From: Opitutales bacterium
GTDB taxonomy: Bacteria > Verrucomicrobiota > Verrucomicrobiia > Opitutales > PNEW01
Length of the DNA: 64,000 nucleotides
Direction of reading: 5' to 3'
NCBI GenBank assembly: GCA_965197745.1
Contig: CBDANS010000007.1
Location: 1,052,306 to 1,116,305 of the forward strand
Position 1 is the first letter of the stretch, and the number at the start of each line of letters is the position of its first letter. Under the pieces are notes generated by a model. It had not been told where the DNA came from and ran no database searches. It saw nothing but the letters and a program-made list of their open reading frames with translations. Shown here in pieces: positions 41,470 through 63,245 of the stretch. The position numbers were made by a program, and so were the translations under genes.

Positions 41470-42066
41470 ATGACACCTGTTTTTGAAAAACTTCAGAAGA
41501 TACTTAAGCAATTACCCGGCCTGGGATACCGCTCGGCGGAACGTGTAGCATTACACCTCACCGTGGAAAAACCGGATTTGCTTCCACAGCTTGTAGATTG
41601 TCTGCAAGAGGCAGCACAAAAAATTAATCGATGCAGCATTTGTGGCAATCTCTGCGAAGATGAGAACTGTGAAATTTGTCTACATCCAAAACGTAACCAC
41701 GCGGAAATTTGCATCGTTGAGCAGGTGCCCGATCTCATTGCCATTGAGCGAAGCGCAGCCTATCGTGGATGCTATCACGTCCTGCATGGAAAACTCTCTC
41801 CTATTCATGATGTCGGACCGGACGATCTCAATTTCCAATCGCTTAAAGAGCGGTTGGACTCCGGAGAGGTAGAGGAAATAATCCTCGCTTTATCCAATGA
41901 TATCGAAGGTGAAGCGACCTGTCACTATATTCAGGAGACGATCATTGGTAATCAACCCCTTAAAGTAACCCGTATCGGATTCGGTTTGCCTAGCGGGGGG
42001 GGCATTGTCTATGCCGATGCTGTAACTTTGAAAAGCGCGCTTGAAGGGCGACGCAGCTATCACTAA
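41470..42066 (+). CDS. recR: Recombination protein RecR
   Basis: LPGLGYRSAERVALHL HhH motif, C4 zinc finger CSICGNLCEDENCEIC, and a Toprim domain. Confidence 0.95.
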   Translation: MTPVFEKLQKILKQLPGLGYRSAERVALHLTVEKPDLLPQLVDCLQEAAQKINRCSICGNLCEDENCEICLHPKRNHAEICIVEQVPDLIAIERSAAYRGCYHVLHGKLSPIHDVGPDDLNFQSLKERLDSGEVEEIILALSNDIEGEATCHYIQETIIGNQPLKVTRIGFGLPSGGGIVYADAVTLKSALEGRRSYH

Positions 42067-42113: not shown

Positions 42114-42187
42114 GCGGACGTAGTATAGAGGTAATACGTGAGCTTCCCAAGCTTGAATCGAGGGTTCGATTCCCTCCGTCCGCACCA
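42114..42187 (+). tRNA. tRNA-Gly (anticodon CCC), CCA encoded
   Basis: Manual cloverleaf: acceptor GCGGACG/CGTCCGC, D stem GTAT/ATAC, anticodon loop TTCCCAA, T arm GAGGG-TTCGATT-CCCTC. Confidence 0.9.
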
Positions 42188-42451
42188 GGTATCAGTATTC
42201 GGAACCCCAACAATACTTTAATCGCTCTATTGCCTGGCGAAGGCTGCGCGCTGTAGTCCCGCAAACGCGGGACGAAGACGGGCATTTCGTGTACGTCAGC
42301 CGTTTACGCAATAAATTACGCCTTAATCTTGACGAAGGGCTATCTTCGTCGCATTGCCCGTGTTCAGGGGAGGGGGCCCTCAAACACCCCCCCTAAATCA
42401 TCCAATTGAAAAACCCATACACGGAATATACCCCTTCCTACCCCAAGGGGA

Positions 42452-42533
42452 TTCAACACTAGCGCAGTGCTGGTGAGTGCTGTGAAGCCGTGAAGGGGTT
42501 TTGATAGGTGGGGGTATTACCTGGATACCCCTC
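42452..42533 (+). repeat. Oriented repeat (OR) copy E, long variant
   Basis: ...GTGCTGGTGAGTGC...GGTTTTGATAGGTGGGGGTAT-TACCTGG-ATACCCC. Confidence 0.8.
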
Positions 42534-43656
42534 TCAATTATTTCCTCACTAATCCAACCCTAGAATCTGCTTTCGTTTTCGCTCAAGTACAATAAAACGC
42601 GGCTCTTTCCGGAGGAAGTCAAAATGTAGCAAATAGAGAGGATAATATTTCTCCTCCTCATAGGCTTGTTCAAGCGCTTCTAAGGTCTTTTCCTTCTGGC
42701 CTAAATTGGCGTAAAGGAAACGTGTCCAATTCAATTTTGCAAAAATAATTTCCAACTCTGGTGTAGCAGACACGGGCTTACCTGTACGCTTATGCTCTTC
42801 TACGAGCGAAACATAGTGCTGCATAGCTTCTTTATTTTCACCTGTAAGCTCAGCCCAGTGAACATACTCGCGTGTGGCATCCTCATACTTTTTTGCATGA
42901 AGATACGCAGCCCCTAAATGTAACCATGTAGTAGCGTTGTTTGAGTCCAGCTCAAGCGATCTCTGCAACTGATTAATAGCCACGTCGTATTGCCGCGATA
43001 CTAAGAGCGTTATTCCTAGCATAAATGAGTAATGGGCTGAAAAGGGATCAAGTTCATAAGCCTTTCTCCTTTCATTAAGAGATTCGTCTAAGCGATCCGT
43101 CAGATATAGCACACTCGCATAGAAGTGGTACGTCGGCGCATACTTTGGATTGAGTTCAATCGCACGCTGAAACTCCCTTTCAGCGCCTTTAAAGTCTTTC
43201 AGAAAATAGTCCTTATAACGCCCCATAGAAGCATGGGCTTCAGCAAGGTTCGGGTCGAGCGCTAGTGCCTTCTTCGCCACTTCTTCGGCTTGTGCTTTTA
43301 CATCGCTTTTTTTAACACTAGCTATTTTCATAGGAAGAAAATTATAAACATCCGCGAGCCCAGAGTATGCTAGGGCGTAGTTGGGATCCAAGGCAATGGC
43401 TTCTTTGAAGTGTTTCATCGCGGCCATTAAATCTTCATCAGTCTGCTGGAAATTTTCACCCCGTTTGTTCCAACGATAACGCCCTAATAGGTATGCGTTG
43501 TAGGCTTCGGTGTTCTCAGTATAGTGCTTTACCAGAGGCGCACCCGCTTCACCCATAAGCTCAACATGAAGAGATTTGGCAATCGCCTGAGAGATTTCAT
43601 CCTGGATGGCGAAGACATTTTTCAGCTCCCTGTTGTAGGTTTCTGACCAAAGATGA

Positions 43657-44974
43657 TGATCGGGTTACGTAAACTGGTCCACCGAGAGAGTTAGTCTGGA
43701 GAGGTTAATGTTGAAGTTAAGTTGGTAGAGGAAGTCAAGGCTTGGGCGCAATGAGGGCGTAGCCCGAATGGAGCCCAAGCCTTCGGTATTAATGTCTTCA
43801 GCGAAGCACCGTGGGGTGATATTGCCGAGGCTGCGGTGGGGTCGGACATTATTGTAAAGCCAGCGCCAGTCCTCGATCACCACGCGGGCTTCGGTCAAAG
43901 TCCATAGCTGTTCACGGTTTAAACACTCCTCGCGAAAACGGGCATGCAACGATTCGATGTATCCGTTCTGCCAAGGGCTTCCTGGTTCGATATAGAGGGT
44001 TTTGATTTTCATCGCAGTTAGCCAGGCTCTCAATTCCTTTTCAATGAATGGCTTCGCATGTCGTCGCTTCGCTCCTCGGAACGGAACCGTTGTCACTGCG
44101 AATATATTGTGGCGGCCCATGACGGGCAAGCAGTTTTTGCATGATACCGCGCACCGTTTCCGCATTGATATGGCGATCAACATGGATCACTCGACACTCG
44201 CGGGTGTACTCATCGAGCACGGTCAACATTTTTAAACTGCCACCGCGGACCGTCTTATCGTGGATAAAATCCCAGGTCCAAACATGGCCGGGATGTTCGG
44301 CCTTGGTCGGCAGCCCGGTGGAAACACCCCTGCCCCGACGTCTTGGCTTGCGTTGGGGGATCGCCAAGCCCAGTTCGCGTCGTAGACCTTGCACGAGACG
44401 TTTACCCACCTCCCAGCCTTCGTCTTTCAACAGCTTCGTGATCTTCGGATAGCCCCACCTGGCATATTGCCGTGATAACCGCCTTACTGCCGCCTTCAGT
44501 TTCATTAACCAAGCATCCGGATGCTTCGCCTTATACGCATAGGTGGAACGGTGCAGCCGAAAGTACCGGCACCCCGCTCGCATCGAACACTGGCCCCGAG
44601 CCACAAGTCTCTCTGCCACTTGCCGCTTGTGCCCAGGGCTTACAGTTTTTTTTCGAGGGTCTCCTGCAGGATCTCTATCCCCAGCATCTTGTCCGCCAGC
44701 ATCCGTTTTAACCGCGCGTTCTCCTTCAAAGAGTTCCTTCATCCGCTTGGCCTGGTCGACATCAATCATCCCAAACTCACGCTTCCAGCGGTGGAAAGTC
44801 TGTTCGCTAATGTTGTTCTCGCGGCATGCTTCCAGGATCGTTTTCCCTTTGTCCGCCTGCCGCAGCATCCGTATTTTCTCTTCAGTTGTGTATCTTTTGC
44901 CTTTCATTGTCTGAGTCCTTTCTAGGTTACCCAGACTAACTTTTCAAGTGTACCAGTTTTCGTGGTCACGACCA
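43657..44974 (-). mobile_element. IS3-family element, copy 4, complete ends (1318 bp) with a 4-bp target duplication ATGA
   Basis: TG...CA termini. TSD at 43653-43656 and 44975-44978. A8 slippery run at 44646-44653. Confidence 0.9.
44041..44907 (-). pseudogene. IS3 OrfA-OrfB fusion reading frame, terminated inside the DDE domain by a 33-bp insert
   Basis: An indel near KEL/FEG joins the orfA and orfB frames. ...YIRSDNG is followed by SVPRSEATTCEAIH*, which is encoded by the insert at 44047-44079. The rest of the DDE domain is in ORF 43665..44183. Confidence 0.8.
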
Positions 44975-45773
44975 ATGAAAACCATCAGCAACATTTATAA
45001 GCTGTGTCGTGATGCGGAGGTCGTTTCCTGATTTACGCACACTCCCTTCAAGCACCGTTGCAACTTTGAGTTGTTCACCGATTGATGGGATGTCTAAATT
45101 TTCTTCCTTGAATCTGAAGGATGAAGTTCGCGCAGCTACGTGCATACCTGCAATCTTGGTAAATGCATTAATGAGCTCCTCCGCCATCCCCTCACAGAAG
45201 TATTCCTGATCTTTATTCGGACTCATGTCGTGGAAGGGAAGGACAGCGATGGACTTTATTACAGACTCAGGCTCAGGTGCTTTTCTTAATATTAAATAAC
45301 CGATGACAGTTACCGCTAATAGCAATAAAGGGATCAGTCCCCCCAGGGCTACGTTCCGCCATGTGAAAATCTTATGTCGATGAACCTTTTCCTCTGTGCC
45401 CCCTTCTGTTGCAGCGTCATCAGGATCTGTCTCCTTGGGCTTCGCCCTTTCCTGGACAAACGCGGTAGCCACAACCATTGGGAAGCCGACAAGGAGCAAC
45501 ACTATTGCCATAGTTGGTGACCACTCGGGCAAACCGAGACTGGTCGTTAGATGCTGAACGACCTGCAAGACGATCCAGCTGCCAACAAGGTAGATTAATA
45601 TCACCTGCCAAAGTGAACGTCGATGAATCTCGTGTATAAGCTGGGTTAAGCTAGGCATGGCTATTGCAGCAAAAGATGGCGAATGCTTGAGAGGAACTGG
45701 GTCGTTAGTCTGAAGCCATTGCCTTAAACTGTAAAGGATGAAGCAAACGGCTATGTGAAGGGGCTATCTCACA

Positions 45774-45830
45774 GCTAACCATTCTCGAGCTTTGAAGAGC
45801 AATGAGCGCAAGAATGAATTTTTTGATCTT
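45774..45830 (+). repeat. OR copy H (degenerate, no hairpin), attached to the TPR-gene leader
   Basis: CTAACCATTCTCGAGCTTTGAAGAGCAATGAGCGC...TTTTGATC. Confidence 0.55.
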
Positions 45831-45928
45831 AATAAAACCTTGAAACCAACATCAAATGTTATATTTCTAGGAGGAAGCAGACGTTAGACTGCGGGGAGAC
45901 TGAAAGTCACACTTGTGGAAGACATAAA

Positions 45929-46931
45929 ATGACTGAAACTGATGGGTTAATTTGTGCCTATATATTAGACGGCAAGGGCGGTGGTCACCGTATAGAGTCT
46001 TTGCAGCGTCTCACACAGCCGCAGGAGGGCTTTCTCTGGGTTCATCTGCAAAGAACTGGCAAGGAAGCACGGGCGATGGCTATTGGAGAAAAGCGGTCTA
46101 GATTTAGTCATGTGCAACGCTCTGATCGGAACCACAGAAATGTCCACGGAACAATGGATCAAGGAAGGGCATCCCCATAGTATATTTTATAAGAGCGGTG
46201 TCTCGATAATCCTGCGAGGGGTTAACCTCAATCCAGGTGCTGACGTGAACGATATGGTCTCGATCCGTGCCTGGTTTGACTCGGATAAAGTCATTACAGT
46301 AAGGGAACGCCATATCAAAGCGATCGACGACATCCGGGATCGCATTGCCGAATCGAAGGGTCCGATAGGGCCTGCGGATTTCATGGGTTTACTCGCTGGA
46401 CGACTTGGCGATCGAATATCCGAAGCGCTCACAAGTCTACGGGAGGAGATAGACGACTTGGAAGAGGCCGTCATCATCGAACGAGCACCAGCGGTGGGCA
46501 AAAAACTCGGTTCATTGAGGCGGCGAGCCATCGCAAAGCGGCGGCACCTTCTCCCGCAACGCTATGCTTTGTTACAGCTTGCGCAGGAGAAGTTATCTTG
46601 GATTGAAGATCACCATCGAGCACAGCTCCAAGACATCGCAGACCGCACAGCCCGGCAGGTAGATGATCTTGACGCACTGAGGGAGAGAGCTGCCGTTATC
46701 CAAGACGAGATCATGAACCAACTCTCCGCACGGCTCAACCGCACCATGTATTTGCTGTCTGCCATCGCGGCGATCTTCCTCCCGTTGAGTTTACTTACGG
46801 GACTGTTCGGCATTAATCTCGGGGGTATCCCTGGACGCGACTGGACATGGGCGTTCCCAATCGCTTGTATCGTCTTAGCTCTCACAGCGATTATCGAAGT
46901 GTGGCTTTTCCGGCGTTGGAAGTTGTTCTGA
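45929..46931 (+). pseudogene. CorA/ZntB-family divalent-metal transporter with a frameshift near 46075-46085
   Basis: N-terminal part in 45929..46180 (GLICAYILDGKGGG). The remainder is in 46083..46931 and ends with two TM helices. A sequencing error cannot be excluded. Confidence 0.7.
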
Positions 46932-47000
46932 ACTTCCCTCAGGCTACAACACAGGGCATTATAGGAGACAGACGGAGGGGTTCAATAAACCTCTTACAGT

Positions 47001-47070
47001 TTAATGTTCTCGAGCGCTGAAGAGTGATGAGAGCGTTTTGATGGGCTGGGGTATACCTGGGATACCCCTT
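47001..47070 (+). repeat. OR copy A (reference full copy)
   Basis: TTCTCGAGCGCTGAAGAGTGATGAGAGCGTTTTGATGGGCTGGGGTAT-ACCTGGG-ATACCCCTT. Confidence 0.85.
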
Positions 47071-47142
47071 GGACGATTTAACAGTTCAGATTGCTACCAA
47101 ATTTTAAGAAATCTTAAACTTATATGAGAGGGTGTGCACTCT

Positions 47143-47436
47143 TCAAACTACTTTATTGATAATATTCCCTATCTCATCAGCCGAAAAGGCCCGCAGTGTT
47201 TGCGTCCGAACATTCCCCAACGATCCGACGCTTAGTCCAAGAGCAGTTATCGACTCATCGTCAGGTGCATCCATGGTTATAACTAAATCGTATTGGCCCA
47301 GAGTCCAGAATATATCTTTAACGGTAACACCAGCATCCTTCGCCATTGACTTGAAAGCTTCAGCTCGTTTTTCCGTTTCCTTAACATTGCGTATTCCCTG
47401 GTCGGTGAAATTTCCAAGCACTATATAATTTGCCAT
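47143..47436 (-). CDS. GYD-domain protein
   Basis: 97 aa. Contains GQYDLVITMDAPDDES and the typical GYD-family length and profile. Confidence 0.8.
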   Translation of the reverse strand: MANYIVLGNFTDQGIRNVKETEKRAEAFKSMAKDAGVTVKDIFWTLGQYDLVITMDAPDDESITALGLSVGSLGNVRTQTLRAFSADEIGNIINKVV

Positions 47437-47564
47437 TTTGAACCCCCTTTATTGATGTTATATTGATTACCAGTCACAGTTAAATATTACCCTTTAAATG
47501 TGAAAATCAAGTAATGGGGAAAGGAATATAATTGTCACCCCCCACAAATCCCCCAAGCCCTACC

Positions 47565-47607
47565 TTCATGTTCTCAAGCCACAGCTAGCGGTGAGAGCGT
47601 TTTGATG
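47565..47607 (+). repeat. OR copy D, truncated after TTTTGATG
   Basis: TTCTCAAGCCACAGCTAGCGGTGAGAGCGTTTTGATG is fused to a gene fragment. Confidence 0.7.
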
Positions 47608-47672
47608 CCACTTTCGCTAATGAGGATGGCATTGACATCAGTGTTACAGTGGAAGAGATGGTGATTGAGTAA
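47604..47672 (+). pseudogene. Last 22 codons of a third member of the shared C-terminal-domain family
   Basis: DATFANEDGIDISVTVEEMVIE*, compared with DATFANEDGDEITVAIDEITIE* (60004..) and DATFVNEDGTVIPVTVDNLTIE* (..4776). Confidence 0.75.
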
Positions 47673-47675
47673 TCC

Positions 47676-47737
47676 TAGCTTTAATTTCCACTGCTTTCAG
47701 GACGCAGAGTTTCCCCTTTACCTATGCGGGTTTCAGG
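47676..47737 (+). repeat. Inverted-repeat arm Y (degenerate tRNA-like part plus conserved 37-nt core)
   Basis: GACGCAGAGTTTCCCCTTTACCTATGCGGGTTTCAGG is the reverse complement of 59393-59428, with 2 mismatches. Confidence 0.8.
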
Positions 47738-47815
47738 GGCAGTTGCCAGAAAACAGAATATTTGGCAACTATTGTGAATTTTCAACTACTCGCGATAGGT
47801 TCTGAGATCAAAATG

Positions 47816-48205
47816 TTAATTTATATTTTTGCTTTGGGAAAGCATTATTTTGATTACTTTCTTAACATCATTCGATGATAGAATGGAATGAAGAGATCTA
47901 ATAAATTCTTCTTCATTTTCGACTTTATATTCTTCATTTGATATTTCGTTAAAAATTTTTAGAGGATAAAGAAAAAGTGGCTGTTCAATACGGAGCACGG
48001 TTACACTATAGTCGTCTAAATTTTGTGCTAAGATATCAAGTCTGATAGTGATTGTATTTGCAGATATGATGGGCCAAACTTGTCCTCTAAGAGTTCCATT
48101 TGTCTGTGTTCCTAAAATTTCTGCTTGCTTTTTGAGTATTGTAAATGGCGGTGTTATGTCATCACCAGTTGGCAGATCACCCCATAAATTTTCATCTTTA
48201 TTCAT
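47816..48205 (-). CDS. Hypothetical protein (129 aa)
   Basis: Clean AT-rich ORF with no recognisable motif. Confidence 0.55.
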   Translation of the reverse strand: MNKDENLWGDLPTGDDITPPFTILKKQAEILGTQTNGTLRGQVWPIISANTITIRLDILAQNLDDYSVTVLRIEQPLFLYPLKIFNEISNEEYKVENEEEFIRSLHSILSSNDVKKVIKIMLSQSKNIN

Positions 48206-48297
48206 GATAGCACCATCCTTTCTATCTCAATTTCAAAATCAAGGGGAAAATGGTCATCGCCAATGTCATAATGCGTATGATCGAGGTCAAACGTAAA

Positions 48298-48484
48298 GGG
48301 TCAGACTGCGAATTCTTTGATTTTATTCAAAGTTCTGTAGGCTTTACTTCTGTTCTTCTGCTCACGCCGAAAGATACTAACATAGAGTTCGTCGTTACTT
48401 TCAATCCTTGGCTTTCGAGCCATTCTCTCGCAATTCCAGTTCTCCCATAGTTTCTTATAAATCAAAGAATTCGCAGTCTGACCC
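48298..48484. repeat. Palindromic mini-element with 25-26 bp perfect terminal inverted repeats; its right tip is split by the IS4 insertion
   Basis: AGGGTCAGACTGCGAATTCTTTGAT (48298-48322) pairs with ATCAAAGAATTCGCAGTCTGACCC(T) (48460-48484, plus T at 50069). It encloses a 40-codon minus-strand ORF, MARKPRIESNDELYVSIF... Confidence 0.7.
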
Positions 48485-50057
48485 GAATGGCGTTAAGATA
48501 AGGGATAGAATGAGTGCAATAGATGCTTGTACAGGGACCGTTGGAGAGCTACCCTAACGAGCATGCAAAAACAAAACTTAACTCGTTATTTTCCAGGATT
48601 TAATCAGGTCCTGTTCGGTCGTGCTCCCCGAACAGCCCTTGCACAGATGGAGGGTAAGCTGGTAGAAATACGGCGGTCAAGTCTTTCCGAGCTATCGGAT
48701 ATCTTCGGGCAGTGGGTGCCGCAAAAGTATTTACACCGGAAGCCTCGAGGGGCTAACAGCCGGCGGAGATTGTTCAGCCAAAACGTGACCTTCTGGGCAT
48801 TTTTGTTCCAAGTGCTCTCACCACGGACTGCCTGCCGGGAAGTGGTGCGCAAGCTCCAGAGCTATTGCAGCATGAAGGGGCTGAAGTTGGCTAAAGGAAC
48901 GGCCTCGGCCTACTGTCAGGCGAGGCAACGGCTGTTGGTGCAAGACCTGCACGGGATCCATGAAGCGATCAGTGAAGAGGTGGCCGGGAGAGTGACCGAC
49001 GATCAACGGTGGAAAGGTCACGAGGTAAAAGTGGTCGACGGCACGGGTATCGCCACCGCCGATACGCCGTGCTTGCAGAGGTGTTACCCACAGCCTTCGC
49101 AGCAACGAAGCGGCTGCGGCTTTCCGGTGGTGAAGCTGGTGGGCTGTTTTTCTTTAGCCAGTGGGGCGCTTTTACACTGGATGGAGTCCTCACTAAGGCA
49201 TCATGACAGTGTGCTGTTGCGGGGCATGATCGGATTTTTTCAAAAGGGTGATGTGGTCCTTGCCGACCGGGGATTTTGCTCTTACCTCAATATTGCCCTG
49301 CTTAAAGGCCGCGGTGCTGAAGCGGTCATGCGTTTGCATCAGCAACGAAGAAGCGACTTTCGTCAGGGCAGGTCCTTGGGTAGGTATGACCGGCTGATCA
49401 TGTGGAAGAAGCCGCAAAATGTCTTCGGCTTCAGTCGCGAGCAGTGGCGGCAAATCCCTGATGAGATCCCCGTACGGCTGGTGAAGATTTTCATTTTCAT
49501 CAAAGGTTTCCGCGCCCATAGCGTAGACCTCGTGACTACCTTGAGCGATCCTCACCAATACTCCCACCACGATCTCGGAGAATTATACTATCGGCGCTGG
49601 GCAGTGGAGCTTTACTTTCGCCACATCAAAACCACCATGGGGATGGAGATCCTGCGCTCTCGCTCGGTCGCTCTCGTGCGCAAAGAGATTGCGATGTTTG
49701 CCATCGCCTACAATCTCTCATCCGCGCTCTTTTGCAGCAAGCTGCCAGTGCCTTCCACCGCGACCTCTCCCGGCTAAGCTTCAAGGGGGCTGTTGACACC
49801 CTCCGCCAATATCAAAGTGCGCTCGCGGCCACCCGGTTTAATCCCAGAGCCCAACGATCTGTCATTGACGAGATGATACACCTCATTGCCCTCGAATCGG
49901 TCCCCCTACGTCCCTTCCGATACGAACCAAGAGTCCTCAAACGTAGACCTATACCTTTCCAACGATTGACTCATCCACGAGCCATGATGACCGTCTCTGC
50001 TTCACGAAAAAACAAAGGCTTTTATCATCCTAAACCACCCTTATCTTAACGCCATTC
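48485..50057 (+). mobile_element. IS4-family insertion sequence (1573 bp) with an 11-bp target duplication
   Basis: Inverted termini GAATGGCGTTAAGATAAGGG. TSD CAGTCTGACCC at 48474-48484 and 50058-50068. Confidence 0.85.
48527..50049 (+). pseudogene. IS4-family DDE transposase with a frameshift near 49730
   Basis: YRRWAVELYFRHIKTTMGME (YREK region) lies in 48527..49777. The C-terminal LSFKGAVDTLRQY lies in 49732..50049. Confidence 0.75.
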
Positions 50058-50080
50058 CAGTCTGACCCTATTTCTTCTGC

Positions 50081-50162
50081 CCAGCCACAGCACAGTGCTG
50101 GTGAGTGCATATCAAGGCGTGAGGACGTTTTGATTGGGAAGGTATACGCCTAGATACCCCTT
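50081..50162 (+). repeat. OR copy F, long variant
   Basis: CCAGCCACAGCACAGTGCTGGTGAGTGC...GACGTTTTGATTGGGAAGGTAT-ACGCCTAG-ATACCCCTT. Confidence 0.75.
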
Positions 50163-50238
50163 GATCTAAAAAAATGCTCAATATATTTTAGTTCTAAGAG
50201 AAGCAAATTAAGATAGATACAGAAGGAGGTGAACGACC

Positions 50239-50637
50239 ATGAGGAAAGAAGAAAATGTAAACATAGTGCGGGAAATTTACGCGAACTTTGGTCGGGGGAA
50301 CATCCCTAGCATACTGAATGTCCTAGCGGATGATATTGTGTTTAAGCAGCCGACAGCAGGTCCATCACCGCTTGCTGGCACTTATCATGGACCTGAGCAA
50401 GTCGGAGAATGGTTTGGCAAGTTGGATGAAGTGGCAGAATCTCAGAACTTCGAGCCTCGAGAGTTCATCGCTCAGGGAAACAAGGTAATCGTCCTAGGTT
50501 ACTACAAGTTTCTGGCAAAACCCACAAATAAAACATGGGAAGCTGAGTGGGTGATGGTATGGACTTTCAAAGAGAGCAAGGTAGTAGGGTTCCAGTTCTT
50601 CGGTGATACTGCTGCTGAAACCGCAGCTTTCTCATGA
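50239..50637 (+). CDS. SnoaL-like/NTF2-fold protein
   Basis: 132 aa. N-terminal NVNIVREIYANFGRGNI and an overall pattern typical of ketosteroid-isomerase-like proteins. GGAGG RBS. Confidence 0.8.
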   Translation: MRKEENVNIVREIYANFGRGNIPSILNVLADDIVFKQPTAGPSPLAGTYHGPEQVGEWFGKLDEVAESQNFEPREFIAQGNKVIVLGYYKFLAKPTNKTWEAEWVMVWTFKESKVVGFQFFGDTAAETAAFS

Positions 50638-50654
50638 AGCTAGTTTCTCCCAGT

Positions 50655-50732
50655 CTTAACTTAGTATTCTCGAGTACTGAAGAGCGATGACGACGTTTTT
50701 ATGAGTGGGGGTATACCTAGGGGATCCCCCTT
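50655..50732 (+). repeat. OR copy B
   Basis: CTTAACTTAGTATTCTCGAGTACTGAAGAGCGATGACGACGTTTTTATGAGTGGGGGTATACCTAGGGGATCCCCCTT. Confidence 0.8.
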
Positions 50733-52065
50733 AAAATCCAAGGACACGAAAAGCTAATCCTGGCCGCATGAGGCTTTCTGGTGGTTTAACCAAGGACAAT
50801 GTATCCAGCAACGCCCGTCGGACTTCTAACCTTTTTTCGGCTTTGGCAAACAGACGTTTAACATACCAATTGATAAAATTCAGTTTCAAAGGTCTTCTGC
50901 CACGGGTCTGTGGATAAGCAAGATCAGACCCAGAAGTCAGTTCCCACGCCCAGTTTGCGCCAACGTTACCCATCTGGCTCCGAAATCTATCTGAAAATCC
51001 ATTCAGGGTGCTGCCTTTTTCGGCGAGAGCTGAGAGACTATTCCACAGGAACACACCCTCTTTAGCAGCCTTTGTCATGCCTTGGCCATAAATTGGATTA
51101 AGTTTACATACTGCATCACCCATGACTAATAATCTATCAGGAAAAGTCTTCAGGCGATCGAAACGTTGTAAGTGGCACGATGGGATCCGGTAGCTTCTGA
51201 ACTCCGAAACTGGTGTGGCATTTTGAAGGAATTCTGAAATATCGGGTGCATCCAATTTTTGAGCGAAAGCTTGGAAACCAGCGTCGTCTGAAGGGGCATT
51301 CTCACCGAAGTATCCCCAAAGAGTTACAATCCATTGATTGTCTTCAACTCTCTCCATTACACCCCCGAGCCATCCCTTAGGCGCATTCGGATTGAGTAAA
51401 AGCAAATTCCAATCAGGTGAAAATTCTGGAGCTTTGAAAAGGCGACTGGTGTAAGAAATGTCAACCTCTACAATTTCTGTTTCAGGTGCATCAAAACCCA
51501 AGCCAAGCAACTCTTTCGGTAGTGTGGATGCACTACCACGAGCATCAACTGTGAGATCGGAGTCGAGTTGAATTTCTTTATCTGGACCCCTGGCAACAAT
51601 GCCCATGACGCTTTTTCCTGATGGATCGGTTATCCACTCTGAGAATCTATAACCCTGCATGAACTCGACATTATTAAGACCTGCTACATATTGCCTAAGG
51701 TAGTATTCGTAAAACGGTCGGGTCGATCCGATAAAAGTTTGGTTGGTTTCTCCTCGTGCCAACCATTTGCCGAAATGTCTCCACTTCAATTCACTTCCTC
51801 CATCAAAGATGTGTGCCCCATTAGAAACCAGTTGCTCAATTACCTCTGGCATTAACTGCTTTAAAGCTTCGTAAGAGGGTGGTAATATTCCGTGAATGTG
51901 ATTCCCTTGTGGCACTCCCTTTCGTGGACTAAAATGTGTCTCCAAGTTGTCCCTCTCGACAACAACAACTCTCTCGAAGAAGTCAGCCAATGCACGAGCC
52001 GCGAAAAGTCCAGCGACACTTGCGCCAACAACTACAGCTTGACTGGAAAGCAAATGTTTAGCCAT
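50731..52065 (-). CDS. FAD-dependent monooxygenase/oxidoreductase
   Basis: VVVGASVAGLFAARAL...VVVVERD dinucleotide-binding motif. 444 aa. Confidence 0.8.
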   Translation of the reverse strand: MAKHLLSSQAVVVGASVAGLFAARALADFFERVVVVERDNLETHFSPRKGVPQGNHIHGILPPSYEALKQLMPEVIEQLVSNGAHIFDGGSELKWRHFGKWLARGETNQTFIGSTRPFYEYYLRQYVAGLNNVEFMQGYRFSEWITDPSGKSVMGIVARGPDKEIQLDSDLTVDARGSASTLPKELLGLGFDAPETEIVEVDISYTSRLFKAPEFSPDWNLLLLNPNAPKGWLGGVMERVEDNQWIVTLWGYFGENAPSDDAGFQAFAQKLDAPDISEFLQNATPVSEFRSYRIPSCHLQRFDRLKTFPDRLLVMGDAVCKLNPIYGQGMTKAAKEGVFLWNSLSALAEKGSTLNGFSDRFRSQMGNVGANWAWELTSGSDLAYPQTRGRRPLKLNFINWYVKRLFAKAEKRLEVRRALLDTLSLVKPPESLMRPGLAFRVLGF

Positions 52066-52093
52066 AACCTAACATACCCCTCTCAAATATAAC

Positions 52094-54112
52094 TTACTCC
52101 TCCAACCCCACCTTCCTCACAAGCTCTATGAAACGGGGATCTGATCGAAGAAAGTCAAATGCTGGCGTTATCTTTAAGAATCTAAGAATAACACCTCGGT
52201 GCTCGTAGACTTGCTCAAGAAACTCCAAGGTTTGTTCCTTTTCGTTTAACTCAGCATATAGCAAAGCGAATGCATAATAGGGTGGAAATCCATGCCTCGC
52301 AATAATAGCTTTTTTCTGCGCTTGCTCGAGTGATTCTAAAGCTTTTTCCTTCTGCCCCATTTTGACATAGAAGTGAGCAAGATAATAATCAGGGTCCTTA
52401 TTTTTCTCGGAGTATATGAAGTTTCTATAGTCTAGACCATTGAATTCAAGAAAACATACACCGATTTTAGGATCAGCCTCGAGTTTGGGTGGAAGAGACA
52501 TTGGGATTCCTGTCCGTTTATACTTGATCACATTTTTACAGAAAAGCCACAACGTTTCCTCATCTATAGAGATAGCCTTCTGCTCAGACCACCGACTGAA
52601 CGCATCGACAGCCTCGTCAATCCTTTCAGCCTTAAGATGTAATACCCCTATATTATTCAAATACCATTGTACTGCCTGGCGTTCCGGGTAAAGCATGATT
52701 GTCTTTTCATACTGCTGAATAGCTGCATCGTCCTGTCCTGCAATTTCAAGCAACATTGCGAGCGCACCATTGTAGGTGTGAGATATAGGATCCAACTCCA
52801 AGGCCTTATTTCCTCCCATCAAAGCCTCATCAAAACGACCCATGCTCGCCAGCATCATCGAATACCAATGGTGTGTGTCCGCATATTCCGGGTTTGAATC
52901 AATGGCCAGCAGAAATTCCTTTTCGGCACCACGCATGTCGTAGCTGTTACGCTTCATAAAACCAAGGAGGGCATGAGCTTCGGCAAGGTTCGGGTCAAGA
53001 GTGAGAGCATTCTCCAATGCTTCTTGGCTTTGTGTGATGTAGTCCTTTCTAAATGCAATTCTTTCAGCTACTGATATGTTTTCTGGAGGACGGTTTTGCG
53101 AAAAGAGAATAGCACTAGCAAGACCAGAGTATGCGAGCGCATAGTTTGGATCCAAGGCAATGGCCTCCTTGAAGTGTTTAATTGCAGTTTTTAAATATTC
53201 CGTTGTCTGCTCATCCGTGACGATTCGTTTGTTCCAAAGATAAAGACCTTGAAGGTAATGGTCGTAAGCTTCGATATTTGTAGTCGAGAGTTTAATTAAA
53301 GGAGCACCTGCTTTACCTATGAGTTTAACATGAAGTGCATTGGCAATTGCCTGTGAGATTTCATCTTGGATGGCGAAGACGCTCTTTAACTCTCGTTCAT
53401 AAGTCTTCGACCAGAGATGAAAGTTATCAGCAGCATTGTTAAGTTGAGCTGTGATCCGGATGGAGTTTCCCTCCTTTCGCACGCTCCCTTCGAGCACGGT
53501 TGTGACGTTGAGTTGCTCGCCAATCGTGGATATGGCCTCATTTCTGAGACGAAACGAAGAGGTTCGAGCAGCTACACGCAACCCTTCGACCTGAGCGAGA
53601 GCGTTCAGGATTTCCTCTGCCATACCCTCGCCGAAGTATTCCTGATCTTTATTCGGGCTCATGTCGCGGAAGGGGAGGACGGCGATGGACTTAATCACAG
53701 ACTCCGGTTCAGGCTCGGGCTCCGGTGCAGGTGCATTTCTCATTATTAAATACCCAATGACAGTTACCGCTAACAGCAATAATGGGATCAGACCGCCCAG
53801 GGCTGTGTTCCGCCATGTGAAAATCTTATGCCGATGAACCTTTTCCTCAGTGCCCCCTGTCGTTGAAGTGTCATCATCACCTGTCTGTTGGGGCTTTACC
53901 CTTTCCTGGACAAAGGCTGTTGCCACAACCATCGGGAAGCCGACAAGGAGCAACACTATTGCCATTGTTGGAGACCACTCAGGTAAACCGAGACTGGTCG
54001 TTAAATGCTGAACGACCTGCAAGACAATCCAACTGCCAACAAGGTAGATTAATATCACCTGCCATAGTGAACGTCGATGAATCTCGTGGATAAGCTTGGT
54101 TAAGCTGGGCAT
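52094..54112 (-). CDS. Membrane-anchored TolB-N-like/TPR repeat protein (intact paralogue)
   Basis: N-terminal TM pair. [25 protein letters not shown]...[19 protein letters not shown]. Multiple TPR units follow. Confidence 0.85.
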   Translation of the reverse strand: MPSLTKLIHEIHRRSLWQVILIYLVGSWIVLQVVQHLTTSLGLPEWSPTMAIVLLLVGFPMVVATAFVQERVKPQQTGDDDTSTTGGTEEKVHRHKIFTWRNTALGGLIPLLLLAVTVIGYLIMRNAPAPEPEPEPESVIKSIAVLPFRDMSPNKDQEYFGEGMAEEILNALAQVEGLRVAARTSSFRLRNEAISTIGEQLNVTTVLEGSVRKEGNSIRITAQLNNAADNFHLWSKTYERELKSVFAIQDEISQAIANALHVKLIGKAGAPLIKLSTTNIEAYDHYLQGLYLWNKRIVTDEQTTEYLKTAIKHFKEAIALDPNYALAYSGLASAILFSQNRPPENISVAERIAFRKDYITQSQEALENALTLDPNLAEAHALLGFMKRNSYDMRGAEKEFLLAIDSNPEYADTHHWYSMMLASMGRFDEALMGGNKALELDPISHTYNGALAMLLEIAGQDDAAIQQYEKTIMLYPERQAVQWYLNNIGVLHLKAERIDEAVDAFSRWSEQKAISIDEETLWLFCKNVIKYKRTGIPMSLPPKLEADPKIGVCFLEFNGLDYRNFIYSEKNKDPDYYLAHFYVKMGQKEKALESLEQAQKKAIIARHGFPPYYAFALLYAELNEKEQTLEFLEQVYEHRGVILRFLKITPAFDFLRSDPRFIELVRKVGLEE

Positions 54113-54227
54113 GGCTATTACAGCAAAGATGATGAATGCTCGTTAGGGAACTGGACCTTCAGCTTGAAGTTTTTGGATAAAACTGTAAAGGATGAAGCAA
54201 TTGACTGTGAGATGGGCTCTTTCTTAT

Positions 54228-54275
54228 ATTAACCATTCTCAAGCTTCAGCAAGAGAGTTTACAGAATTGCTTGAT
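54228..54275 (+). repeat. OR copy I (degenerate), attached to the TPR-gene leader
   Basis: TTAACCATTCTCAAGCTTCAGCAAGAGAG... Confidence 0.45.
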
Positions 54276-54375
54276 CCTATCGCTTCTATGAATAGGATGC
54301 CCAGTTAGCAGATGCGAAGAAGATAACTACAATATTTTAGGCCCCTTTACCCATCTCAACAATCAGGAGATTATA

Positions 54376-54717
54376 ATGATCTTTGAGATACGAAACTATC
54401 ATTTCAATCCAGCTCTTTTTGAATCCTACAAACAATGGGCAAAGAGCGAGGCGACTCCATATTTATTTAGCAAACTCGACATTGTTGGCTTCTGGGTAAA
54501 TACCAGTGACGAACCTGAAGTAAGGGGCCAGCCGCAAGACGATCTCGGATCAGCTAATATCACGTGGATTATCCGATGGAATGATATGGAACATCGGAAT
54601 AGAGTTCTCCCTGATGTTCTTTCAAGCCCTGAATGGCAGACAATTTTCACCAGAGTTCCTGGTGGTAGAGCAAGCTATCTGCGCATAGAGTCCAAATTTG
54701 CAGAGTCTCTTCAGTGA
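54376..54717 (+). CDS. NIPSNAP-family protein
   Basis: MIFEIRNYHFNP...; 113 aa with a dimeric alpha-beta-barrel profile. Confidence 0.75.
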   Translation: MIFEIRNYHFNPALFESYKQWAKSEATPYLFSKLDIVGFWVNTSDEPEVRGQPQDDLGSANITWIIRWNDMEHRNRVLPDVLSSPEWQTIFTRVPGGRASYLRIESKFAESLQ

Positions 54718-54725
54718 CAGCACTT

Positions 54726-54808
54726 CCTAACGTCTTGTGTCAAGCTACAGCGAGCGGTGAGAGCGTTTTGATGGGCTGGGGTATAGCTGAATACCCCTTG
54801 GGCTAACC
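54726..54808 (+). repeat. OR copy C
   Basis: CCTAACGTCTTGTGTCAAGCTACAGCGAGCGGTGAGAGCGTTTTGATGGGCTGGGGTAT-AGCTGA-ATACCCCTTGGGCTAACC. Confidence 0.85.
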
Positions 54809-54858
54809 AGCATTTTAAAATATTGTGGTCCCTACGAGAATAGGTTATTACGGATTGT

Positions 54859-55545
54859 ATGCAATCTAAGGTTGGAGCTGTTTCTGCAATTGCAGGAGCT
54901 ATTATTCTGCTCGTTGGAACTTCCCTACATCCTATGGAGGAAGATCCAAACGATCCAGTTGCCGCATTTACAGAATACGCAGATGACTCACTGTGGGTAG
55001 GCAGTCATTTAACTCAGTTACTAGGCATCGTTTTAATTGTAGCAGCACTTCTTACACTAACCCACCTATTGACTAATGATAAAGGTGGCGGGTGGTCACA
55101 GTTTGGCTCAGCGTTTGCTATTTCTAGTTTGGCCATTGCAGCGGCTCTTCAAGCTGTAGATGGTATTGCGCTAAAGGTGATGGTAGACAATTGGGTGGCT
55201 GCACCAGAATCAGAGAAGATGGCTATTTTTCATGCTACAATTGGCGTCAGGCAAGTTGATGTAGGACTGGCCAGCATGTTCAGTATGTTTATCGGTTTAA
55301 CTGTGGTGCTGTATGGTGTATCTATTGTGATGACCGATCGGTTTCCGAGCTGGCTAGGGTTGATCGCAATCTTTGGTGGCGGTGCGACAGTAACAGCTGG
55401 TGTAATGTATGCGTATACGGGGTTTTCAAAAGTAGCAATGTCTGTAAGCATGCCAGCAAGCTTGTTACTATTGCTTTGGTTGATTGTTCTTGGGGTAAGA
55501 ATGTGGCGAGTAAGTAACAAATGTAATATTACACCCCATTCATAG
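54859..55545 (+). CDS. Integral membrane protein (about 6 TM helices by eye)
   Basis: Hydrophobic repeat pattern. Family not securely recognised. Confidence 0.6.
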   Translation: MQSKVGAVSAIAGAIILLVGTSLHPMEEDPNDPVAAFTEYADDSLWVGSHLTQLLGIVLIVAALLTLTHLLTNDKGGGWSQFGSAFAISSLAIAAALQAVDGIALKVMVDNWVAAPESEKMAIFHATIGVRQVDVGLASMFSMFIGLTVVLYGVSIVMTDRFPSWLGLIAIFGGGATVTAGVMYAYTGFSKVAMSVSMPASLLLLLWLIVLGVRMWRVSNKCNITPHS

Positions 55546-55615
55546 CTTACCATTCTCGAGCGCTGAAGAGTGATGAGAGCGTTTAGTTAGCAGAGGGTAT
55601 AGCTTATTTACCTTC
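55546..55615 (+). repeat. OR copy G (intact 5' half, degenerate hairpin)
   Basis: CTTACCATTCTCGAGCGCTGAAGAGTGATGAGAGCGTTTAGTTAGCAGAGGGTATAGCTTATTTACC. Confidence 0.75.
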
Positions 55616-55745
55616 AGTGACAAAACGCTGTGGTTACTCGCTGTCGCTGTTCAGAGGTAAAATAAATGCTATATCTATGACCCCTTTTAGCCTTTCTTTG
55701 TTCAGGGGTAAAATTGATTCTGCATCTTTGACCCCTTACAACTCC

Positions 55746-55803
55746 TCAACATTGACATCATTATCCGCATACGCGAATATACAGAACTTTAGAACCACTT
55801 GTT
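55746..55803 (+). promoter_or_regulatory. Conserved 58-bp upstream module, copy 1 (TTGACA ... TATACA)
   Basis: About 90% identical to 57793-57850. It ends 18 nt before the 55822 start. Confidence 0.4.
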
Positions 55804-55821
55804 ATCCCACGAGAGCCGACG

Positions 55822-56754
55822 ATGGTTATTGACTGCGAAACACACATATTCCCACGGTGCTTTGATTATCGTCGCTGTCACGTTGAGGACCAGCTCGAGG
55901 ATATGAATCGCTGCGGCGTGGATCGGACCTTCCTCACGTTCTACTGTGACAGTACGCTCACCTCGCCATGCGGGGAGATCACGGATCCCAGTATCAAGCG
56001 GTTCGGTGACAGTGATGCGGAAGTCTGGGACTACTTCAAGGAATCATGGCTCGCGCATCAAGATAGATTCTTCTTCTTCAGTGTTCCCGATCCTCGTGAG
56101 CCGGACTGTATCGAACGACTCGAGGAGCAGTGCGAACTTGGGCTCCACGGCATCGGAGAAACCCAGCCGGCAACGCAGAACATTTTTCCGAATGGTCCCG
56201 AGTTCATGCGTGTATATCGGTTCGCGGCTGACAGAGGATTGCCGGTTGTGCTGACCATGGAACGATGGGAGGAGTGCCTGTGCTTTCGCGGCAGATACTT
56301 CGATGAGTTCTTCGACATGTTTGAGCAAGTGATCCGGGAGTTTGAGGATGTCCGGTTCATGATCGGCCACAGCGGCGATTGCGGCAGTGTCCGTTCAAAG
56401 GATTGGGATACCTACCTGGAAAGCAACCTGCGGTGCTACGAATTGGCTGCAAAGCTGGACAATGTGTGGGTCTGCTCATGCATGCCATGGTGGTTTGCCG
56501 ACAACAAGGTCAATCCTCTCCTGGAACGACAGGTCAGGTTCCTTAGAGACCACGTGGGCTTCTCGAAGGTGACATGGGGCAGTGACTGGCCGTACAACGG
56601 TAGTGGTACGAGCTTCTCCTTCAGGAGTGACTACGGGACGGTGGTCGATTACTACCGTAACCTGCCATTCTGCAGTGAGGAGGAACTGGAGAGCCTCCTT
56701 GGCGGAGCGGCTTATGAGTTTGTCACCGGCCACAAGATCGACTCCGACAGCTAG
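55822..56754 (+). CDS. Amidohydrolase-2 (TIM-barrel metal-dependent hydrolase) family protein
   Basis: VIDCETHIFP N-terminal metal motif, HSGD, and WGSDWPY. Confidence 0.75.
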   Translation: MVIDCETHIFPRCFDYRRCHVEDQLEDMNRCGVDRTFLTFYCDSTLTSPCGEITDPSIKRFGDSDAEVWDYFKESWLAHQDRFFFFSVPDPREPDCIERLEEQCELGLHGIGETQPATQNIFPNGPEFMRVYRFAADRGLPVVLTMERWEECLCFRGRYFDEFFDMFEQVIREFEDVRFMIGHSGDCGSVRSKDWDTYLESNLRCYELAAKLDNVWVCSCMPWWFADNKVNPLLERQVRFLRDHVGFSKVTWGSDWPYNGSGTSFSFRSDYGTVVDYYRNLPFCSEEELESLLGGAAYEFVTGHKIDSDS

Positions 56755-56913
56755 GAAGACCCGCGTGGGTCAACCGATGCATAGTGCACCGGTTGTCCCA
56801 AATTACTAGATCGTCCGGCTGCCATCTGTGTCGGTAGACAAATTGGGGTTGTACTGCTAACGCAGTAAGCTCTCTCAGAATACGCCTGCTCCCCCGATCA
56901 AATTCAAGCGGCC

Positions 56914-57687
56914 TTAACCTTTAGGACTCACCGCTTTCTTCTCCAGTACTGCCTGGTAGCGATCCGTTTTAAATACGGCCTGATTGAGAGTTTCGTTTTT
57001 GCAGGTAACCTCACCCGTTACCCAATGGGTGACGTAGGCGCGACGCCAGCGATCTGAATAATTGCGGTGTGAACTGTGCAGCGTTTGAATTTGATGAAAT
57101 ACAACACCCCCTTTATGGACAGGAGCCAGTCCTTCATTCTTCATTTTAATATCCTCTTCTCTCGGTAAGAAGCTGTGCGGCTCAGCGGCTGATTTTTGGT
57201 AGTGAGGTATAATTCCTACTTTGTGTGACCCACTGATATAGCGCAGGCATCCGTTTTCTTCGTTTACATCGTCGAGCGCGATCCACGCGGTAATAACATG
57301 ATCTGCGGGAAAGCACTGGTAATGAAAGTTATCCTGGTGATAAGGTACGGGGCCTCCGTGATGAGGGGGTTTCAAGAATACCTGATCCTTTAACAACAAT
57401 GGAGTGTCACCTAAGAACTCCTCAATTACACTATTAAAACAGTCGTCTAAAACAAATTCTTGAAATGAAGGATGCTTGAAATATGGATTTGTAATTTTAC
57501 GGGGAATGACCTCCCCGCTTTCCAGTCGTTCCCCGGCTATGGCAGCTACATCGGGGCTTTTTATTTCTTCTTCAATTATCGTCGTCGCTGTCTTCGCTAT
57601 ACCGTCCACAACGGCATGATCAAATACCCCTTCGATCACGACCCATCCTTTTTCCAAATAGTGATCCATCTGTTCTTGAGTAACCAT
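56914..57687 (-). CDS. Phytanoyl-CoA dioxygenase (PhyH) family Fe(II)/2OG oxygenase
   Basis: YHQDNFHY (HxD), ISGSHK, and a distal His. Confidence 0.8.
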   Translation of the reverse strand: MVTQEQMDHYLEKGWVVIEGVFDHAVVDGIAKTATTIIEEEIKSPDVAAIAGERLESGEVIPRKITNPYFKHPSFQEFVLDDCFNSVIEEFLGDTPLLLKDQVFLKPPHHGGPVPYHQDNFHYQCFPADHVITAWIALDDVNEENGCLRYISGSHKVGIIPHYQKSAAEPHSFLPREEDIKMKNEGLAPVHKGGVVFHQIQTLHSSHRNYSDRWRRAYVTHWVTGEVTCKNETLNQAVFKTDRYQAVLEKKAVSPKG

Positions 57688-57792
57688 TTCTGAGCCCTTT
57701 TTCGTTTTATAAAAAATTTATCTTTTAATAGTGAGACTTCAATAATTAAAATCCAGATCGCTTTTATTCTCGGGGAAGGGGAGGAAAAGGGG

Positions 57793-57850
57793 TCAACATT
57801 GACAACATTACCAGCATACGCAAATATACAGAACTTTAGAACCACTTGTT
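57793..57850 (+). promoter_or_regulatory. Conserved 58-bp upstream module, copy 2
   Basis: See 55746-55803. Lies about 138 nt upstream of 57989. Confidence 0.4.
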
Positions 57851-62969: not shown

Positions 62970-62970
62970 C

Positions 62971-63073: not shown

Positions 63074-63192
63074 GGTAAATGCAGCAAAAGATGGCGAATG
63101 CTTGGGAGGAACCAGGTCGTTAGGCTGAAACCATTAGCTTAAACTGTAAAGGATGAAGCAATCGACTGAGTAAGGGGGGCATTTTGACCCAA

Positions 63193-63245
63193 TCGTTTTC
63201 AAGCCGTAGTAAGAGGAAACTCTATGGGGTCGGGGTGTAGTCTTA
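63193..63245 (+). repeat. OR copy J (degenerate)
   Basis: TTTTCAAGCCGTAGTAAGAGGAAACTCTATGGGGTCGGGGTGTAG. Confidence 0.45.

Follow-up and report, generated by a model that had tools for sequence, protein, structure and literature searches.

A 64,000-nucleotide stretch of the genome of an Opitutales bacterium (assembly GCA_965197745.1, contig CBDANS010000007.1, positions 1,052,306 to 1,116,305; the whole stretch is called the window) raises the question of whether a short repeat that divides a 13-kb accessory region into units of one or two unrelated genes is the joint of a gene-cassette system. Among systems that stockpile cassettes of single genes at a site of folded DNA, only integrons are, to our knowledge, well understood. 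An initial annotation of the window, made from the sequence alone, described the repeat, read the region as a cassette array assembled by site-specific recombination, and named as alternatives an orientation-biased family of repetitive extragenic palindromes (REPs) and a 3'-untranslated-region or small RNA (sRNA) module. The analysis reported here indicates that the repeat looks like the joint of a gene-cassette system other than the classical integron. The explanation that we favor, with roughly even confidence, is that it constitutes an Opitutales-specific, strand-specific DNA junction, acted on in trans, between gene modules that can be exchanged, in flexible regions that often adjoin tRNA genes.

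The repeat family was recovered in the window by a repeat search (families D3, D7, D8 and D10), and its 17-mer core has four matches at three or fewer mismatches where 0.22 are expected. An nhmmer profile built from the copies detected eight of them (A, B, C, D, E, F, H and I, E-values from 1e-4 to 1e-23), all on the + strand and together spanning 42459-55623, and found nothing comparable in the rest of the 64-kb window or on the - strand. Motif scans confined all motifs of the element to 42.4-55.6 kb and 63.2 kb, on the + strand throughout. The repeat family proposed by the initial annotation is thus real, local and uniform in strand. Eight of its ten copies are robust, while the copy at 54228 (G) is marginal alone (nhmmer E=3), being backed by TTCTCAAGC and by its position beside a duplicated tetratricopeptide repeat (TPR) leader, and the copy at 63193 (J) is degenerate and was missed by nhmmer; all ten lie on the + strand between 42452 and 63245. 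The array runs past the window end: the next 9 kb of the source contig (ENA ERZ25072076 ctg245869, 2.29 Mb, which includes the window and encodes an identical RecR) contains + copies at ~64200-64284 and ~64867-64912 (locus L019), which flank a glyoxalase gene, and the following 8 kb holds no further copies. The source contig therefore has 12 copies in 22.5 kb and none in the remaining 50 kb examined. Spacing between copies is mostly 0.5-3.7 kb, the sole exception being a 7.6-kb gap from I to J.

The anatomy of the element was read from an alignment of 26 copies. The full element is asymmetric and 85-120 nt long. Its 5' end carries a YAYAGCTAAC motif, followed by a variable segment (TTCTCRAGC...) of at least three subtypes; in certain copies this segment folds into a short hairpin that includes T.G wobbles (AGYRYT-CTCG-AGYRCT). 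Next comes a near-invariant core, GAGAGCGTTTTGATG, that is, (G/A)TGAGAGCGTTTTGATG, and then a spacer of ~9 nt with the subtypes GGGCTGGGG, GAGTGRGGG and GCAGAGGG. The spacer leads into a 3' hairpin, GGGGTAT-N5-13-ATACCCC, whose arms are invariant and whose loop is free to vary between 5 and 13 nt, and the element ends in TTGGGCTAA or in a longer, subtype-specific extension. Conservation between genomes is high: a 50-nt stretch is identical in L002 and L005, where neighboring homologous segments are only ~75-83% identical.

Folds of single sequences contain two separate hairpins and no single long stem. In 14 full copies, RNAalifold and pair counting support the invariant-arm hairpin alone, and covariation in these copies does not exceed that in shuffled controls. 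The + strand as single-stranded DNA is more stable than its complement in 15/19 full copies, with a mean difference of 0.9 kcal/mol among copies that are not independent of one another. Judging from these folds, single-stranded DNA in folded form is probably what is acted on. A coding reading of the 5' half (a peptide such as SQATASGESVLM) was also considered and rejected: variation at every third base was not significant when column entropies were permuted (p=0.6), and the segment is not covered by any ORF.

A strict pattern of the 3' half occurs in a single genome among 185,579 species representatives, the Opitutales metagenome-assembled genome OY829953.1, at two places, both accompanied by another, more diverged copy on the strand of the first. 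These two are the only exact matches to the pattern in this complete chromosome of 4.49 Mb. A 19-mer scan of metagenome contigs yielded 13 matches, 10 of them attributable to chance, and added L005 (represented also as L015, with three same-strand copies) and L010 (one copy). The TolB/TPR genes of the array belong to a cyclase-TolB-TPR paralogue family, and their homologues led to the loci L020 (six copies on one strand), L027 (two), L029 (two, orthologous to those of L001) and L031 (one). An nhmmer survey of 270 kb of loci, in slices of ~20 kb per genome, returned 29 hits: 10 in the source (12 with G and J), six in L020, three in L005 and two each in L001, L002, L027 and L029 among them. Strand is uniform within every locus (29/29), which has a probability of ~2^-17 by chance even if copies linked to paralogous duplications are discounted. 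Five or more Opitutales genomes or contigs other than the source have same-strand arrays, and the family is so far restricted to Opitutales. A cyanobacterial origin of the window was rejected, as just three HIP1 sites are present in it. Viral contigs gave no match to the repeat and plasmids no meaningful similarity; an exact-protein look-up of the SnoaL cassette returned the source contig only. The initial annotation had held that an ordinary REP would be dispersed genome-wide, on either strand and irrespective of gene boundaries or variable gene content; in the 270 kb surveyed, the copies are instead clustered and, within each locus, lie on one strand.

Alignments of related loci show gene content exchanged between genomes at the element. 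The closely related genomes L001 and L029 have a block of ~960 nt in common at 97-98% identity, which consists of a membrane ORF of 225 aa, a single truncated copy and, from a full copy, the 3' half. Identity begins inside the full copy, at TGAGAGCGTTTTGATGGG, and leftward of this point lie a different 5' subtype and unrelated flanks. Positions 852-1393 of L002 and 9871-9318 of L020, consisting of a repeat, an ORF of 85-90 aa and another repeat, are 83% identical and have unrelated flanks on both sides. In L020 and L021, homology past the orthologous TPR stop codon ends at the outer edge of the repeat. In all three comparisons homology never resumes past the repeat, and no filled-versus-empty sites were found. 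That homology stops at or in the repeat and does not resume is expected of a module junction and not of an inserted miniature inverted-repeat transposable element (MITE), and it marks the repeat as the former. The close strain L017 diverges exactly at an IS3 element, not at a repeat, and is uninformative on cassette variation.

The 5' and 3' parts of the element have different allegiances. The subtype of spacer, hairpin and extension goes with the right-hand neighbor, and the 5' part goes with the left-hand module. At the 3' end of the TPR gene, the source contig, L020, L005, L027 and L031 have the same 3' part and three different 5' subtypes; likewise, copy I and the copies L020-9380 and L027-9870 have a common extension and differing 5' parts. 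Since the two parts assort independently, the exchange point is placed in the core. Three independent half-copy breaks fall at TTGAT within it: copy D ends with GTTTTGATG, copies B and G, a related pair taken as one break, end after TTGAT, and the half copy at L020 8558-8595 starts at TTGATG. A crossover in the hairpin loop was also considered, from the remnants at 42427 and 52066 and the L010 copy; it is less supported than a core crossover, and an internal deletion is the simpler reading of the 52066 remnant. Breaks of gene content at the repeat, for which the initial annotation proposed to test, are seen in three comparisons between genomes, and its cassette-array reading is partly supported, by the junction behavior and the independence of the halves; the exchange may be site-specific, or it may be homologous recombination of the ordinary kind within the core.

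The arrays also have a consistent relation to tRNA genes. In 5/5 loci the copies have the orientation of the tRNA gene nearest to them, and four arrays have their start 0.14-1.1 kb downstream of such a gene: the first copy lies 265 nt from tRNA-Gly in the source contig, ~220 nt from tRNA-Met in L010, ~985 nt from tRNA-Ser in L005 and ~1.1 kb from tRNA-Phe in L020. In L027, a co-oriented tRNA-Arg lies 4 kb off, on the other side of the copies. One and the same repeat stands beside four different tRNAs (Gly, Met, Ser and Phe), and it has no similarity to any tRNA or tRNA 3' end. BLAST of the spacers between tRNA and first copy revealed no sequence common between loci. Remnants of a hairpin arm like that at 42427..42447 also follow tRNA-Met in L010 and tRNA-Phe in L020.

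Several further features were observed at these tRNA genes. A TACCCC(N2-4)CCTACCCCAA motif lies between tRNA and first copy in the window (42428-42447) and in L020, ~140 nt past tRNA-Phe. Positions 3300-4400 of L005, between tRNA and first copy, contain direct repeats of the tRNA-Ser 3' end (CCTCTCCGCCA) as well as a gene for a 23S-rRNA-intervening-sequence protein; the direct repeats suggest classical tandem attachment (att) sites between the tRNA and the array. Homologues of the aldolase neighboring the tRNA-Met locus gave no close relative. Another contig of the same sample (L022 10819-20666) has this same tRNA-Met hotspot past ATP synthase genes and an HpcH aldolase, with no repeat copies; its genes encode TIR, pP_pnuc, DUF4145 and DUF4062 domains and look defence-related.

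How such a junction might work can be outlined from the position of the breaks and the folds. Joining would be site-specific and take place within the core, either at TTGAT or adjacent to it and 8-9 nt upstream of the hairpin. The enzyme would be encoded elsewhere in the genome, act in trans and recognize just one strand of the element, as single-stranded DNA in folded form, and repeated insertion at an existing joint would generate head-to-tail arrays. Candidate enzyme classes are HUH/Y1-type 'peel and paste' transposases and integron-integrase-like recombinases acting on folded single strands; neither was found near any array. Both classes have precedents: ISDra2 transposes single-stranded DNA at TTGAT under the guidance of hairpins (PMC8612924), and integron arrays that lack an integrase are known (Cury et al. 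2016, PMC4889954). A more specific proposal, which we regard as possible but doubtful, is that the element belongs to an undescribed, integron-analogous gene-capture system of Opitutales, with a bipartite strand-specific site (variable 5' part, invariant core and invariant-arm hairpin), exchange between GAGAGCGTTTTGAT and the following G, a recombinase other than IntI that is encoded away from the array and acts in trans on single-stranded DNA, and arrays seeded immediately downstream of tRNAs.

Several observations weigh against a site-specific junction. Some six further truncations lie away from TTGAT, at model positions 53-74, which points to decay or other processes acting on the copies as well. 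The one or two copies in L027 and L031 were seemingly inherited with the TPR paralogue. No circular or excised form was observed, and GC skew gave no usable signal for replication direction. No recombinase lies in or beside any of the eight arrays examined, as the initial annotation had noted for the array in the window. The cargo genes run in both directions, unlike those of integron cassettes, and the two hairpins are dissimilar, in contrast to those at the ends of IS200/IS605 elements. Finally, no identical tract is longer than the core, where RecA-dependent recombination would therefore resolve too, and ordinary homologous recombination resolving at the core is the main rival to site-specific joining.

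If homologous recombination accounts for the junctions, another function is needed to explain why the element is conserved. The repeat would then be a conserved intergenic element with some other role in DNA or RNA (as a protein-binding insulator, an element of processing or stability, or an sRNA), and its breakpoints would arise from identical tracts through homologous recombination or gene conversion. Such a reading agrees with the high conservation across species, with the persistence of the repeat at the 3' ends of TPR paralogues in five genomes and with the coincidence of the crossover interval and the longest identical tract. However, orientation is fixed to the array and not to the neighboring genes: approximately five cargo genes of the source array lie on the + strand and six on the - strand, and the element is sense after the CorA, SnoaL, NIPSNAP and DUF4386 genes and antisense after the TPR, FAD and GYD genes. 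In the window, Rfam reports the tRNA alone at the gathering threshold, together with four weak sub-threshold matches at E<=5, none of them at repeat copies, and promoter and terminator consensus scans placed nothing on the copies. With no Rfam match, no significant covariation and an orientation independent of the flanking genes, the 3'-untranslated-region or sRNA module offered by the initial annotation is not upheld. Half copies that join TTGAT to unrelated DNA argue, in addition, against homologous exchange. This reading of the element is unlikely.

A REP/MITE-like selfish element is likewise an unlikely explanation. Each copy would be a whole insertion of ~85 nt in one orientation relative to replication, derived from an IS200/IS605 element (a palindrome-associated transposable element, PATE) or mobilized by a REP-associated tyrosine transposase (RAYT), and the cassette-like junctions would result from secondary homologous recombination between copies. 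The REPs mobilized by RAYTs, and the bacterial interspersed mosaic elements (BIMEs) that they form, are imperfect palindromes that measure 20-40 nt, carry a conserved 5' GTAG, are often arranged as inverted pairs and are dispersed through extragenic space in hundreds of copies. The repeat is asymmetric and 85-120 nt long, has no GTAG and never occurs in inverted pairs. With REP/RAYT systems, PATEs and IS200/IS605 elements it has in common a strand-specific orientation, hairpins that would be recognized by sequence, the lack of inverted terminal repeats and apparently of target duplication, and an enzyme that would act in trans. Uniform strand and co-orientation with tRNA genes, which are compatible with an orientation tied to the replication strand, agree with such an element, as do hairpins with sequence-invariant arms and the absence of an enzyme nearby, and the single L010 copy sits in an ordinary intergenic spacer near ATP synthase genes. 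The TTGAT in the core is moreover the target of ISDra2, in which transposition of single-stranded DNA, guided by subterminal hairpins, inserts 3' of TTGAT into the lagging-strand template (PMC8612924). Miniature elements derived from IS200/IS605 insert 3' of a fixed target of 4-5 nt without duplicating it; three half-copy breaks fall at TTGAT as they would in ISDra2, but about six other truncations do not. However, in the 270 kb covered the copies are few and strongly clustered (none in 50 kb of the same contig and two strict matches in the 4.49 Mb chromosome), no filled-versus-empty site was seen, and flanks failed to resume in 3/3 comparisons. The two hairpins are also unlike each other: the 5' AGYRYT-CTCG-AGYRCT of some copies does not resemble GGGGTAT...ATACCCC, as the end hairpins of an IS200/IS605 element should. 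The units in these arrays carry ordinary cargo and no tnpA or tnpB.

A canonical integron array is very unlikely. An attC site is one imperfect palindrome, ~57-141 nt long, that is bounded by R'' (RYYYAAC) and R' (GTTRRRY) and also has L''/L' boxes. The ORFs of integron cassettes are mostly co-oriented, each with a site downstream, and a CALIN (a cluster that has attC sites and no integron integrase) is an array of at least two sites on one strand at a spacing of up to ~4 kb. The repeat likewise forms same-strand arrays with a spacing mostly below 4 kb, in which gene content breaks at the site. As in CALINs, a conserved site separates one or two unrelated accessory genes with no integrase nearby, the sites of one genome closely resemble each other and those of related genomes, gene content is variable where they occur, and the site probably works as a folded single strand. 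The cargo is of cassette type (glyoxalase, acetyltransferase, SnoaL and small proteins of unknown function), and a 5' CTAAC motif and a GTT flank a short hairpin. Integrase-less cassette arrays of this kind are known and common, and Verrucomicrobia have been reported to carry integrons (PMC4889954). However, the repeat has two unrelated hairpins and an invariant linear core, with no R''/R' or L''/L' symmetry, and no single imperfect palindrome spans it. The hairpin from AAC to GTT is just 38-45 nt long with an R box of 3 bp, its R' would be GTTTTGA, which misfits GTTRRRY, and 40 more conserved nt lie beyond it. A search for RYYYAAC and GTTRRRY in complementary pairs, at distances of 50-150 nt, found none at any copy, in agreement with the initial annotation, which had called the repeat not attC-like. 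In addition, the crossover here is apparently located mid-site, so both neighboring modules keep a conserved part, the cargo points both ways, the arrays lie downstream of tRNAs, and no attI was found, nor any IntI in the window.

The repeat also differs from two other systems that accumulate genes between short sites. The pdif modules of Acinetobacter plasmids are bounded by 28-bp dif-like sites that depend on XerC/D, alternate in inverted orientation and have no variable-loop hairpin. The arrays described here resemble them in that small modules in varied contexts are bounded by a short conserved, putative recombination site whose recombinase would be encoded elsewhere. Unlike pdif, the repeat is not dif-like, lies on one strand, has a hairpin with a variable loop and is chromosomal, beside tRNA genes. 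In tRNA-proximal islands and tycheposon-type arrays, the repeat is the 3' part of a tRNA and an integrase is adjacent. Here too cargo accumulates downstream of a tRNA and is separated by direct repeats; however, one repeat unrelated to tRNA serves at four tRNA loci, with no integrase. The repeat thus belongs to none of the families against which it was tested.

The window encodes two recombinases of 428 aa, both generic tyrosine integrases whose NCBIfam matches do not include the IntI model. They are part of paralogous modules, 85-90% identical, at 11258-14071 and 33797-36513, and a second large contig (3,106,837 bp) holds multiple homologues of 79-93% identity. As the initial annotation had reported, hairpin-like arms are present 3' of both genes: GGGTAT-N17-ATACCC abuts both stop codons, with 0.03 expected by chance, and a ACAGCTAA motif lies upstream of the palindrome. 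The link to the repeat that it drew from these arms is not supported. That the repeats are att sites of these integrases, or remnants of tandem integrative elements targeting tRNAs, is highly improbable despite this palindrome, its ACAGCTAA motif and the tRNA genes adjoining the arrays, as nhmmer does not call the integrase flank a copy, conservation of the palindrome does not extend to the flank of an 85% orthologous integrase (L023) or of a 51% homologue (L024, at tRNA-His), no close integrase homologue among the 120 matches listed was assignable to the L020 or OY829953.1 genomes, and the repeat resembles no tRNA 3' end, is the same at four different tRNAs and has no adjacent integrase.

The features of the array are collected in Table 1. 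The intervening genes named in the initial annotation (TolB/TPR, CorA/ZntB-like, GYD, SnoaL, FAD oxidoreductase and DUF4386) are confirmed by Pfam, and the NIPSNAP match is weak. The description as a whole was essentially right; overlooked were the IS3 element, the IS4 transposase and the adjoining tRNA genes, and the lettering of the copies was inconsistent. The AGCGCT palindrome, assigned to A and G, is actually carried by the 47001 and 55546 copies; a second CTAACCA start follows the 54726 copy, not copy C as stated; and the copies that travel with the TPR leader, given as H, I and J, are those at 45774, 54228 and 63193. The hairpin, described as intact in A, C and E and weaker in B, F and G, is also intact in the 54726 copy and is absent, not merely weaker, in the 45774 and 54228 copies.

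Table 1. Repeat copies, cargo genes and adjoining features of the array, in window coordinates
Feature	Position	Strand	Evidence and remarks
ybaB, recR			Upstream of array
tRNA-Gly(CCC)	42114..42187	+	ARAGORN, Rfam; array co-oriented, begins 265 nt downstream
Remnant resembling 3' hairpin arm (TATACCCCTTCCTACCCCAA)	42427..42447	+	Just before copy A
Copy A	42452..42545	+	Full, divergent 5' subtype; nhmmer 42459-42542, E=2e-17; 3' part and extension linked to 3' end of TPR gene
TolB/TPR gene (cargo)	42549..45658	-	Pfam; split by IS3 (43657-44975); paralogue in cyclase-TolB-TPR family
Copy B	45766..45827	+	5' part only, similarity stops after TTGAT; nhmmer 45770-45809, E=1e-4; adjoins TPR leader
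CorA/ZntB-like transporter (cargo)	46083..46931	+	Pfam PF01544, E=1e-61
Copy C	46995..47107	+	Full canonical; nhmmer 46997-47081, E=2e-23; 3' extension common to copies in L002 and L020
GYD-domain protein (cargo)	47143..47436	-	Pfam PF08734
Copy D	47556..47607	+	5' part, ends exactly at GTTTTGATG; nhmmer 47562-47607, E=1e-8, model positions 5-50
IS4-family transposase	48527..49777	+	Pfam DDE_Tnp_1; secondary insertion between copies D and E
Copy E	50081..50172	+	Full, divergent 5' subtype as in A; nhmmer 50086-50171, E=2e-15
SnoaL-like protein (cargo)	50239..50637	+	Pfam PF12680
Copy F	50655..50736	+	Full 5' part and core; nhmmer 50656-50736, E=1e-17; 3' hairpin arm degenerate, abuts stop codon of FAD gene
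FAD-dependent oxidoreductase (cargo)	50731..52065	-	Pfam
Internally deleted copy, 28 nt (AACCTAAC joined to ATACCCCTCTCAAATATAAC; joint CCTAAC to ATACCCCTCTCAAATAT)	52066..52093	+	Comparison of TPR 3' flanks, arm scan; between FAD start and TPR stop
Second TolB/TPR paralogue (cargo)	52094..54112	-	91% nucleotide identity to L020 orthologue
Copy G	54228..54275	+	5' part only, ends after TTGAT, adjoins TPR leader; nhmmer E=3
Small NIPSNAP-like protein (cargo)	54376..54717	+	Weak Pfam match, E=0.003
Copy H	54724..54812	+	Full canonical, then second GCTAACCA; nhmmer 54731-54809, E=2e-19
DUF4386 membrane protein (cargo)	54859..55545	+	Pfam; stop codon overlaps 5' end of copy I
Copy I with 3' extension	55540..55681	+	nhmmer 55541-55623, E=1e-16; extension common to copies in L020 and L027
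Copy J	63186..63245	+	Degenerate, beside fragment of TPR leader; repeat family D1

The surroundings of the array contain other repeated sequences. The IS3-family element at 43657-44975 (HTH_Tnp_1, rve and rve_3 ORFs) has related copies upstream at 8299-9727 and 14080-15109. An internal 158-nt fragment of recR (41861-42018) is duplicated at 91% identity 17 kb downstream, at 59235-59392, just after a PhyH ORF and with no tRNA fragment adjacent. A 58-nt repeat, 93% identical, lies before an amidohydrolase gene (55746-55803) and before a PhyH gene (57793-57850), and its first occurrence is spanned by a perfectly complementary CCTCAAC...GTTGAGG pair 145 nt apart (55744-55888). Paralogues of the cyclase-TolB-TPR, Ig_7 (CHU_C-associated) and PhyH dioxygenase families are abundant around the arrays (window 52094-63891; L020, L021, L027 and L029). 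In L021, TPR and Ig_7 genes alternate, with no repeat copies.

Were the repeat merely an orientation-biased REP-like element, it would still be a useful clade marker family, although an ordinary one. If it is a strand-specific junction of exchangeable modules, its core and hairpin give a defined sequence with which to find the enzyme, and site and enzyme, if found, could together be a compact strand-specific DNA-joining tool. The repeat would also help to delimit flexible regions in Verrucomicrobiota genomes assembled from metagenomes. The same reading bears on how cassettes originate and on why many arrays lack an integrase, and it would mean that a cassette-style organization of accessory genes evolved more than once, with a structurally different joint in another phylum.

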